64,000 nt of DNA, from assembly GCF_056712565.1 (NCBI RefSeq), contig NZ_CM160072.1; one strand, 5' to 3'. Below are positions 6,001 through 9,000 of this stretch, in pieces. The position numbers were made by a program. Each line of letters opens with the position of its first letter. The stretch's first letter is position 1.

Positions 6001-9000
6001 TTCAGCAGAACGAATGACGCAGCGCATTTGGTATATTGTCAGGGCGCGTTTGATGAGCAAGCATGGTTGCTCATTGCCATTCTGAAACCTGAACCTCATA
6101 AACTGGCTCGAGATAACAACCAAATGCATAAAATTGGGAAAATGGCAGAAGCGTTTCGCATGCGTTTTTGAATTTATATTATGAATAACATACAAATAAG
6201 AAACTATCAGCCTGGTGATTTTCAGCAACTATGCGCTATTTTCCTTCGAGCTGTTACGATGACGGCGAGTCAGCACTATTCTCCACAGCAAATTGCCGCC
6301 TGGGCGCAGATTGACGAATCTCGCTGGAAGGAGAAACTCGCGAAATCACAAGTGCGGGTTGCAGTTATTAATGCACAACCGGTTGGTTTTATTACCTGCA
6401 TTGGACATTATATCGATATGTTATTTGTTGAACCGGAATACACCCGACGCGGGGTTGCCAGCGCTTTGTTAAAACCATTGATTAAGTCTGAATCCGAACT
6501 TACGGTGGACGCCAGCATAACCGCAAAACCCTTTTTTGAACGTTATGGTTTTCAGACAGTTAAGCAGCAGCGCGTTGAATGCCGGGGAACGTGGTTTACT
6601 AATTTTTATATGCGATATAAACCGCAACATTAAATCCAGCTTGCAATGAAAATAACGCCCGTCTAGTATGTGCGCGTTTTCTTATTCCACAAACTGCAAG
6701 GAGGTAAATCATGACAAATCCTTTATCAATGACTCTTTGCAGACCTTTCCAGGATTAATTCTTTTTTCTTGCCCTGGATTCGTCTGCCATTTCCTGATTT
6801 TTATTCATAAATGGAATGGTACATGGGCAAATATATTCGTCCCTTATCCGATGCGGTATTTACCATCGCATCTGATGACCTGTGGATCGAAAGTTCAGCG
6901 ATCCAACAATTACACACCACGGCAAATTTACCCAACATGCAGCGCGTTGTGGGGATGCCAGATTTACATCCCGGACGCGGCTACCCGATTGGCGCAGCGT
7001 TCTTCTCTGTTGGTCGTTTTTACCCGGCACTGGTCGGCAATGATATCGGCTGCGGCATGGCGCTATGGCAAACAGATATTCTCGCTCGCAAATACAACGC
7101 CGATAAGTTTGAAAAGCGATTATCAGATCTGGATGACGTTGCTGAAGAAAGCTGGCTGGAGGAAAACCTGCCGTCAGCATTTGCACAGCATCCGTGGCGC
7201 AACTCGCTTGGCTCCATCGGTGGCGGTAACCACTTCGCAGAACTGCAACAGATTGATCAAATTATCGACGCGGAACTGTTTGCACTGGCTGGTCTGGATG
7301 CGCAGCATCTGCAACTGCTGGTTCATAGCGGCTCGAGGGGATTGGGGCAGTCTATTTTACAGCGGCATATTGCCTCGTTTTCGCATCATGGTTTGCCTGA
7401 AGGCAGTGACGACGCGCTACGGTATATTGCGGAACATGACGATGCGCTGGCGTTTGCGCGTATTAATCGCCAGCTGATCGCTTTGCGCATAATGCAACAA
7501 GTTAAGGCCACCGGAAGTCCGGTTCTGGATGTGGCGCATAACTTTGTTAGCGCGTGCCAAATCGGCGATCAACAGGGCTGGTTGCATCGTAAAGGCGCCA
7601 CGCCGGATGACAACGGTCTGGTGATTATTCCCGGTTCACGCGGCGATTACTCCTGGCTGGTTAAACCTGTTGCGAACGAAAAAACGCTCCACTCGCTGGC
7701 GCATGGGGCGGGGCGTAAATGGGGGCGCACCGAGTGTAAAGGGCGTCTGGCAGCGAAATACACGGCGACGCAACTCTCGCGGACTGAACTTGGCAGTCGG
7801 GTAATTTGTCGCGATAAACAACTCATCTTTGAAGAAGCGCCACAAGCCTATAAATCGGCTGAAAGCGTGGTGCAATGTCTGGTGCTGGCTGGGTTAATTA
7901 TTCCTGTCGCGCGACTGCGCCCGGTGCTGACGCTCAAAAACAGTGGAGGGAAAAAAGGATGATCTTGCTACAACTCTCCTCTGCTCAGGGGCCGGAAGAA
8001 TGTTGTCTCGCAGTGAAAAAAGCACTGGACAGGCTGATTAAAGAAGCTACCCGACAGGACGTCGCGGTAACGGTGCTGGAAACAGAAACGGGTCGCTACT
8101 CTGACACACTGCGTTCGGCGCTGATTTCTCTGGATGGCGATAACGCATGGGCTCTAAGCGAAAGCTGGTGCGGCACTATCCAGTGGATTTGTCCGAGTCC
8201 GTATCGGCCTCATCATGGGCGCAAAAACTGGTTTCTGGGCATTGGGCGTTTTACCGCTGATGAGCAGGAACAATCGGATGCAATCCGTTATGAGACGCTG
8301 CGTTCGTCGGGGCCGGGCGGTCAACATGTCAATAAAACCGACTCGGCGGTACGCGCCACGCATCTGGCATCCGGTATTAGCGTGAAGGTTCAGTCAGAGC
8401 GCAGTCAGCATGCTAACAAACGGCTGGCGCGATTACTGATTGCCTGGAAGCTGGAACAACAGCAACAGGAAAATAGCGCGGCGCTGAAATCGCAGCGGCG
8501 AATGTTCCATCACCAGATTGAACGTGGCAACCCGCGACGAACGTTTACAGGGATGGCTTTTATCGAAGGGTAATGAAGGATGATACTGCCGGAAGGCGAT
8601 TAAACGCCATCCGGCAGCAAATCAAATAATTACTTCGCCGGAATTTCTTTCAGCAGTTCAGTCAGCAGTGTCCAGTAATGGCCAACGCTTTCGATATGAA
8701 CTTGCTCATCCGGGGAGTGTGGACCGGTGATGGTTGGCCCGATAGACACCATGTCCATTTCCGGATACGGTTTTTTGAACAGGCCACATTCGAGGCCCGC
8801 GTGGATAATCTGGATGTTCGGCGTTTTGTTGAACAGACGCTGATAGGTTTCACGTACCAGATGCATTACCGGAGAGTTAGCGTCCGGCTGCCAGCCAGGA
8901 TATGCGCCTTTTGCTTCGGTTTTCGCACCTGCCAGTTTACCCAGCGAATCCAGCATGCTCACTACGTAGTCTTTACCGCTGTCGATCAGAGAACGGATCA

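Follow-up and report, generated by a model that had tools for sequence, protein, structure and literature searches.

We describe here the rtcB2-prfH locus in a 64,000-nucleotide stretch of Escherichia coli DNA (NCBI RefSeq assembly GCF_056712565.1, contig NZ_CM160072.1), which is called the window below and is numbered from its first base. Between yafP and pepD, on the + strand, lie rtcB2 (6823-7962), coding for a 379-residue RNA ligase of the release-factor-H-coupled RtcB subfamily, and prfH (7959-8573), coding for peptide chain release factor H, a protein of 204 residues devoid of release factor (RF) domain 1. The gene pair, its structure and its function are already known, and nothing in our analysis contradicts its identity or its function; the part that is probably new, as read from the sequence, is an unannotated leader open reading frame (ORF) and a conserved RNA structure ahead of this known operon. 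The region 6641-8573 very probably constitutes a self-contained module, composed of its own promoter, a translated leader of 15 codons, three conserved hairpins and the coupled rtcB2 and prfH genes, and we infer from orthology that the leader regulates the genes.

The rtcB2-prfH gene pair

A listing of ORFs gave a 383-codon frame at 6811-7962 (+) and a second one, in the +1 frame, that ends at 8573. The original prediction had proposed at 6811-8573 an intact pair of an rtcB-like gene and prfH, overlapping by ATGA. The pair is indeed intact and overlapping, as established by the ORFs, by the annotation of strain ATCC 11775 and by the family scores given below, and the end of the span holds, while its beginning has to be moved: rtcB2 likely starts at 6823 rather than at 6811, the ATG of the longest ORF. 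The start at 6823, ATGGGCAA, is preferred because it is conserved in 89 of 89 related loci from other genomes (nine obtained by protein look-ups and 80 from a scan of species-representative genomes), because the match to the NF007153 model runs from end to end, and because of the published numbering of H294. The ATG at 6811 is in frame, would add four codons and is located inside a conserved ATGGAWTGG element forming the 3' arm of hairpin P3 (see below). In Citrobacter and Pseudomonas the equivalent of this ATG is either missing or in another frame, and it is therefore an unlikely start.

The stop codon of rtcB2 (TGA, 7960-7962) and the start codon of prfH (ATG, 7959-7961) share the ATGA at 7959-7962 (+), an overlap that is predicted to couple the translation of the two genes, and a GGAGG is present at 7945-7949, upstream of the prfH ATG. 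Overlaps of 4 or 1 nucleotides (nt) between rtcB2 and prfH were also found in nine other genera, and the overlap has been described as general (Baranov 2006). Between 6600 and 8650 (2,051 bases compared) the window is 100% identical to E. coli ATCC 11775, in which RefSeq, through the Prokaryotic Genome Annotation Pipeline (PGAP), annotates the equivalents of 6823-7962 and 7959-8573, with the 4-nt overlap, as 'RNA ligase RtcB family protein' and 'prfH: peptide chain release factor H'.

At the protein level, RtcB2 scores 643.3 bits on NCBIfam NF007153 (cut-off 407) over residues 1-378 of 379, and 621.8 bits on TIGR03073, 'release_rtcB' (cut-off 271.8), in addition to containing the Pfam RtcB domain (PF01139). 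Its motifs NDIGCG, GGGNHF, HSGSRG, HN, HRKGA and AHGAGR align with those of RtcB proteins of solved structure, and residues D74, C77, H137, H168, H239, H255 and the catalytic H294 (codon at 7702-7704) are invariant across 15 RtcB2 proteins, down to 60% identity. PrfH scores 328.9 bits on TIGR03072 (cut-off 166.65), as compared with 94.7 on the RF2, 84.1 on the RF1 and 33.7 on the ArfB models, all three under their own cut-offs. It contains the Pfam RF-1 domain at residues 106-194 and a GGQ motif at residues 120-122 (8316-8324), and aligns only to residues 115-302 of RF2 (domains 2-4). Furthermore, 203 of its 204 residues are identical to chain 8 of PDB 7SA4, a structure by cryo-electron microscopy that shows PrfH on a damaged 70S ribosome, the only change being K20R. 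The family models, the Pfam domains and the match to 7SA4 thus agree with the earlier description of an RtcB-family ligase and a full-length release factor homologue with a GGQ motif. The residues mutated in published studies, Q122 of PrfH and H294 of RtcB2, are both present.

Promoter and genomic context

A sigma-70-type promoter is predicted at 6641-6669 (+), with a -35 element TTGCAA (6641-6646), a 17-nt spacer and a -10 element TAGTAT (6664-6669). This promoter, with 8 of 12 matches, was missed by the general scan for sigma-70 promoters and terminators. In 84 of 88 distinct related loci a TTGNNN-N16-18-TANNNT pattern precedes the leader ORF by 37-62 nt, regardless of which gene comes before it, and the promoter predicted in the window matches the constitutive promoter reported for armZ of Pseudomonas aeruginosa (PMC13041342).

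The location of the pair right after the SOS-regulated dinB-yafNOP operon had been singled out as notable in the original prediction. The adjacency is real, but the link with the SOS response is weak. Indeed, in each of the seven Enterobacteriaceae genera that were looked at (Escherichia, Citrobacter, Salmonella, Klebsiella, Intestinirhabdus, Kosakonia and Cronobacter), dinB is found upstream on the same strand as the pair, whether or not yafNOP is present, and the wider dinB...pepD-gpt-frsA-crl neighbourhood is likewise conserved in them, whereas in Limnobaculum, Providencia and Pseudomonas the pair occurs in unrelated contexts that lack dinB. The adjacency is therefore a synteny inherited at the level of the family and not a recurrent association. 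That the pair could be an extension of the SOS regulon, expressed mainly by read-through from the LexA-controlled dinB-yafNOP promoter and so tying ribosome repair to DNA damage, is thus unlikely, even though dinB is upstream in each of the seven genera and is preceded by a LexA-like box. The stretch from yafP to the leader has no predicted intrinsic terminator, which makes read-through possible, but it is not required. A strict search for LexA boxes returned none, and a search allowing one mismatch found near the locus only that of dinB itself, at 4338-4353, ahead of the gene; no LexA-like box is present between 4354 and 12422. Moreover, the pair keeps its own promoter and leader in every context examined.

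A conserved leader with a mini-ORF

The leader region, a 5' untranslated region (UTR) containing the mini-ORF and the hairpins, was delimited with a clade-excluded profile: built from 52 leaders of species outside the Enterobacteriaceae, it has a single match in the window, at 6663-6831 (+), with E = 1.8e-24. A scan of positions 4000-9000 against Rfam (E <= 1) returned no family.

Within the 189-bp spacer between yafP and rtcB2, a mini-ORF of 15 codons encoding MTNPLSMTLCRPFQD and ended by a stop codon extends from 6711 to 6758 (+) and carries no RefSeq annotation. It is preceded by a Shine-Dalgarno (SD) sequence AAGGAGG at 6698-6704 (+), 6 nt before its ATG, and an AAGGAG is present at equal spacing in 88 of the 89 other loci. 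The leader ORF itself is found in 88 of the 89 rtcB2 loci, mostly 108-140 nt ahead of the rtcB2 ATG (112 nt in E. coli). Its 68 distinct versions count 13-15 codons in 65 cases and 16-17 in the others, and all of them contain the motif LC[RG]. The leader-bearing loci belong to Enterobacteriaceae, Budviciaceae, Morganellaceae, Pseudomonas, beta-proteobacteria and a xanthomonad, and their genomic surroundings are unrelated.

The conservation extends to positions that do not alter the peptide. The cysteine is encoded by TGC in all 68 distinct versions and the codon before it is CTT in 63, while the stop codon is located exactly 17 nt after GCRG in 65. These constraints hold from the AT-rich Proteus to the GC-rich Pseudomonas and Cupriavidus. 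Synonymous sites of the leader are therefore frozen by a constraint that acts at the nucleotide level.

The sole locus among the 89 without a recognisable leader ORF is that of Achromobacter deleyi (L086), where a GGACCTGCC resembling the 3' arm of hairpin P2 remains; this leader may be degenerate or divergent.

Hairpins of the leader

Three hairpins can be drawn in the leader, all on the + strand. In P1 (6694-6742), identified as an inverted repeat, CTGCAAGGAG at 6694-6703, which holds the SD of the leader, pairs with CTCTTTGCAG at 6733-6742, which corresponds to leader codons 8-11. P2 (6739-6787), also an inverted repeat, is formed by GCAGACCTTTCCAGG at 6739-6753 and CCTGGATTCGTCTGC at 6773-6787; it surrounds the stop codon of the leader and has a GCAG in common with P1. 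P3 (6787-6819), obtained from the minimum free energy (MFE) fold, brings together the pyrimidine tract CCATTTCC at 6787-6794 and GGAATGG at 6813-6819. Its 3' arm is an SD-like GGAWTGG located 4 nt before the rtcB2 ATG, and its loop contains a T-rich tract.

The support for these structures was evaluated across 72 leaders. RNAalifold, run on the 72-sequence MAFFT alignment, recovered only four pairs of P2, the loops being of variable length and the Proteus rows misaligned; for these two reasons the named structures were counted instead. P2 is paired in 82.7% of the cells, with compensatory changes at 7 of 11 pairs (57 cells) in an alignment that had not been fitted to the structure, as compared with at most 48.7% of paired cells and 30 compensatory cells in slid controls. 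Inspection gives the variants GCAGAC/GTCTGC, GCAGGC/GCCTGC, GCAGAT/ATCTGC, GCGGGC/GCCCGC and GCGGAC/GTCCGC. For P3 the covariation is moderate, with 70-76% of the cells paired and 20 compensatory cells, for example CCAUUUCC/GGAAUGG versus CCAAUCC/GGAUUGG. P1 is paired in 91.8% of the cells and is nearly invariant. Insertions specific to a lineage fall in the loop of P2 (about 180 nt in P. aeruginosa) or in that of P3 (129 bp in K-12). Taken alone, the fold of the single intergenic sequence is not significant (z = -1.67).

Relation to the PA5471.1 leader of Pseudomonas

P. aeruginosa PA7 contains MIQFSTLCRLRLA 254 nt upstream of an RtcB2-family gene, and the product of the latter, the ArmZ orthologue, is 61% identical to the window RtcB2 over 377 aligned residues, including the His294 motif. 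The CTTTGCRG/LC[RG] core and the arms of P2 are at equivalent positions in this genome. The cysteine of PA5471.1 is reportedly residue 8. In the literature, PA5471.1 counts 13 residues, among them Q3 and F4, is situated about 250 bp upstream of armZ (PA5471), a gene co-transcribed with PA5470 (prfH) (PMC3516279, PMC12057347, PMC13041342). The PA7 leader matches this description in its 13 residues, in Q3 and F4 and in its distance of about 250 bp, and therefore the leader ORF of the window is, judged by sequence, the orthologue of PA5471.1.

The two systems share the promoter, a leader of 13-15 codons with LC[RG], a P2-type hairpin, an RtcB2-family gene and prfH. They differ in that leader and gene are about 254 nt apart in Pseudomonas, whose P2 loop has an insertion of about 180 nt, and 112 nt apart in E. 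coli; in that a terminator (segments 3:4) has been published for Pseudomonas whereas none is predicted in the E. coli leader; and in that ArmZ additionally serves as anti-repressor of MexZ. Work by Morita in 2009 reportedly showed translation of PA5471.1 with a reporter fusion, and a mutation of the start codon (M1T) as well as a nonsense mutation (C8Op) are said to de-repress the downstream gene. Complete absence of leader translation would thus, again reportedly from that work, turn the Pseudomonas system on, unlike trp. In Pseudomonas the leader is driven by a constitutive promoter and its complete translation lets the terminator form, while read-through into armZ follows from ribosome stalling (ribosome-targeting drugs; suhB or cca mutations), from the Q3Am mutation or from deletion of the leader (PMC12057347, PMC13041342). 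As for E. coli, induction of the K-12 ykfJ by 4-azaleucine is reported in a review (PMC3516279, citing Morita 2006).

These data also bear on whether the mini-ORF is translated at all. Hairpin arms cover the portion of the peptide that is conserved, its N-terminal half varies, and the frozen synonymous sites point to the RNA; the leader could then be a purely RNA-level element, a riboswitch or a site bound by a protein or a small RNA, of which LC[RG] would be a by-product. We find this quite improbable, since 88 of the 89 loci retain a start codon, a near-perfect SD at fixed spacing, a frame of 13-17 codons and a stop codon at fixed distance, and since deletion of PA5471.1 or its Q3Am mutation strongly raises ArmZ (PMC13041342).

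Comparison with K-12 and other E. coli strains

Comparison with K-12 (NC_000913.3) by blastn and base by base at the junctions showed that a segment of 1,027 bp, 7030-8056, is missing from that strain at the same locus between yafP and pepD. The deletion is flanked by imperfect 9-bp direct repeats (TACCCGGCA at 7021-7029 and TACCCGACA at 8048-8056) and takes out most of rtcB2 together with the 5' end of prfH, so that ykfJ (b0235) and prfH (b0236) are pseudogenes in K-12. This alignment bears out the earlier claim that the pair is degraded in K-12 and intact elsewhere. At least 80% of the 2,051-bp query is present in 2,709 of the 5,426 complete E. coli genomes, and most of the remaining ones show the K-12-type coverage of 50%. 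About half of the complete genomes thus keep the pair whole, a distribution of intact and deleted pairs that agrees with Baranov et al. 2006.

The leader ORF is intact in K-12 (NC_000913.3 253239-253286), with changes on both sides of it. The predicted -10 element reads TGGTAT (about 6193-6198 of the K-12 locus, L001) instead of the TAGTAT found in the window at 6664-6669. The second base of the -10 hexamer is its most critical position; the K-12 change hits this very base and fits a decay of the promoter alongside the genes. Downstream, K-12 carries a 129-bp dispersed repeat (L001:6335-6463) between the equivalents of window positions 6804 and 6807, in the P3 loop and just upstream of ykfJ. 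This repeat has a median of five near-identical copies per E. coli genome and looks ERIC/IRU-like. Other Escherichia and Klebsiella loci (L006, L013 and L016) have similar insertions, of 50-160 nt, at this point of the P3 loop.

Other features of the window

The convergent prfH and pepD genes are separated by a strong hairpin (8586-8617; fold of -25.5 kcal/mol, z = -6.1). Neither of its strands shows a T-run, and it may represent either a shared transcript end or a REP-like element.

Further upstream of rtcB2, an FlhA-like ORF (1830-3569, - strand) lacks its N-terminus and is a pseudogene in ATCC 11775; it adjoins lafU (about 3514-4299, + strand). We take both to be what is left of the Flag-2 lateral flagellar cluster; in K-12, lfhA and lafU are annotated there as pseudogenes. 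The vat vacuolating autotransporter gene is located beside tRNA-Thr (a transfer RNA, tRNA), an integrase and IS1 fragments, at about 16500-24000 of the window (3708301-3715730 of the ATCC 11775 record). Presumably this region is a typical genomic islet of B2/extraintestinal pathogenic E. coli (ExPEC) strains, unrelated to rtcB2-prfH.

Discussion

The biochemistry and the phenotypes published for this pair were obtained with the proteins of E. coli ATCC 25922, whose PrfH differs from that of the window at one residue. According to Tian et al. (2022 PNAS, PMC9304027), PrfH acts as a peptidyl-tRNA hydrolase only on 70S ribosomes that carry a cut between A1493 and G1494, and RtcB2 re-ligates the 16S ribosomal RNA (rRNA) of the damaged 30S subunit, not tRNAs. 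The same study states that the pair reverses the toxicity of ColE3-like ribotoxins, that Q122E and H294N mutants are defective, and that RtcB1 does not repair E3-cut ribosomes any more than RtcB2 repairs tRNA (PMC9304027). Deletion of the pair in ATCC 25922 abolishes resistance to colicin E3 (Maviza et al. 2022 IJMS, PMC9223846), and PrfH speeds the repair of translating ribosomes (2026, PMC13166195). Thus an action on ribotoxin-damaged ribosomes, which the original prediction could only call proposed, is now experimentally established in ATCC 25922 (PMC9304027, PMC9223846, PMC13166195), and the colicin E3 assay on deletion mutants that it suggested already exists in the literature, where the ATCC 25922 knock-outs lose their resistance (PMC9223846).

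The module of the window has the same species, locus, two genes and overlap as that of ATCC 25922, with Q122 and H294 kept, and no difference of substance, the window being from another strain. This supports the view that the window pair would be a ribosome rescue and repair operon, a role carried over from the ATCC 25922 work. In the mechanism shown there, a ribotoxin such as colicin E3 or CdiA-CT(ECL) cuts the 16S rRNA between A1493 and G1494, and translating 70S ribosomes stall. PrfH then enters the A site, recognises the cleaved 3' nucleotide and, with its GGQ, hydrolyses the peptidyl-tRNA, upon which the subunits can separate. Finally RtcB2, using GTP and His294, joins the 2',3'-cyclic-phosphate end back to the 5'-OH end in the 30S subunit. 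The E. coli RtcBA operon shares with it the RtcB ligase fold and chemistry (PF01139), but it contains another RtcB subfamily, is controlled by sigma-54 and RtcR, and has RtcA rather than PrfH as partner. E. coli is not known to have mexZ or mexXY. It is very improbable that the two proteins mainly have the wider role described in Pseudomonas, PrfH freeing antibiotic-stalled intact ribosomes and RtcB2 being a protein-binding regulator instead of a ligase: PA5470 reportedly works against azithromycin in that it frees stalled ribosomes, ArmZ is an anti-repressor that binds MexZ (PMC12057347) and one PrfH subfamily acts on intact stalled ribosomes (PMC12829566), yet the ATCC 25922 PrfH, one residue away from that of the window, is described as inactive on intact ribosomes and RtcB2 as specific for the E3-type cut (PMC9304027), and the catalytic His294 and the metal ligands are intact in the window RtcB2. 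An older toxin-antidote speculation (Baranov 2006) was dropped in light of the later biochemistry.

Regarding regulation, we infer by analogy with Pseudomonas that ribosome stalling or damage would induce the E. coli rtcB2-prfH operon. As long as the leader is translated normally, rtcB2-prfH would remain off; a ribosome that stalls on it or does not translate it would remodel the leader RNA and allow rtcB2-prfH to be expressed; damaged or drug-stalled ribosomes would in this way induce their own repair enzymes. The read-out in E. coli could be transcription attenuation, an unmasking of the rtcB2 ribosome binding site (RBS) held by P3, both of them, or a Rho-dependent process. Such a system would resemble drug-sensing leader peptides such as ermCL and the cat/cmlA leaders, and amino-acid attenuators such as trpL, which share a short translated leader and a downstream RNA structure decided by ribosome occupancy, although no alternative pairing of the 2:3 type known from ermC was found in the E. 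coli leader.

Several results weigh against this regulation by the leader. A simple scan, which may miss such an element, predicted no canonical intrinsic terminator in 6634-6822 (+); a T-rich tract does begin 9-10 nt after P2. P1 shows no compensatory changes across the 72 leaders, and its conservation may reflect other constraints. In equilibrium folds with a ribosome masking the leader start, codon 7, Cys10 or the stop codon, P3 never opens, and the unpaired probability of the rtcB2 SD is 0.02-0.16. Two alternative helices, one between the leader SD and the pyrimidine tract at 6789-6795 and the other between TTGCCC (6769-6774) and GGGCAA at the rtcB2 start, are 66-77% paired, with compensatory changes that are not clearly above slid controls, and neither was retained. 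A simple thermodynamic switch resembling that of ermC was also set aside as unsupported, as the masked folds never expose the rtcB2 SD.

We lean, with limited confidence, towards the cassette being a sense-and-repair unit in E. coli and in the sampled Proteobacteria. The leader would report the state of the ribosome pool, through E3-cut ribosomes stalled at or near start codons or through drug-stalled ribosomes, and would switch on the repair enzymes. The armZ/PA5471.1 route to MexXY aminoglycoside resistance would then be a lineage-specific add-on to an ancestral repair operon, and ArmZ probably would still be a 16S rRNA ligase.

The searched papers on RtcB2-PrfH do not discuss a native promoter, leader or regulation, and heterologous promoters are used there. 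No text in the searched literature, which did not include Morita 2006 and 2009, joins ArmZ with RtcB2 or with colicin E3. The leader peptide sequence is likewise absent from the searched texts, those two papers, which may already note the E. coli leader, being outside them. A 2025 review on MexXY calls the control of armZ by a leader peptide 'unique' (PMC12057347).

The presence of the same leader ahead of rtcB2-prfH in E. coli and in at least five bacterial families brings forward the idea that ribosome damage induces ribosome repair. Control by the leader would explain why experiments with overexpressed proteins and experiments at native level differ. If this is true, two bodies of work without mutual citation in the searched texts, one on RtcB2-PrfH and the other on armZ/PA5471.1, would be joined, and the clinically important pathway of MexXY induction would have been built on top of a ribosome repair operon.

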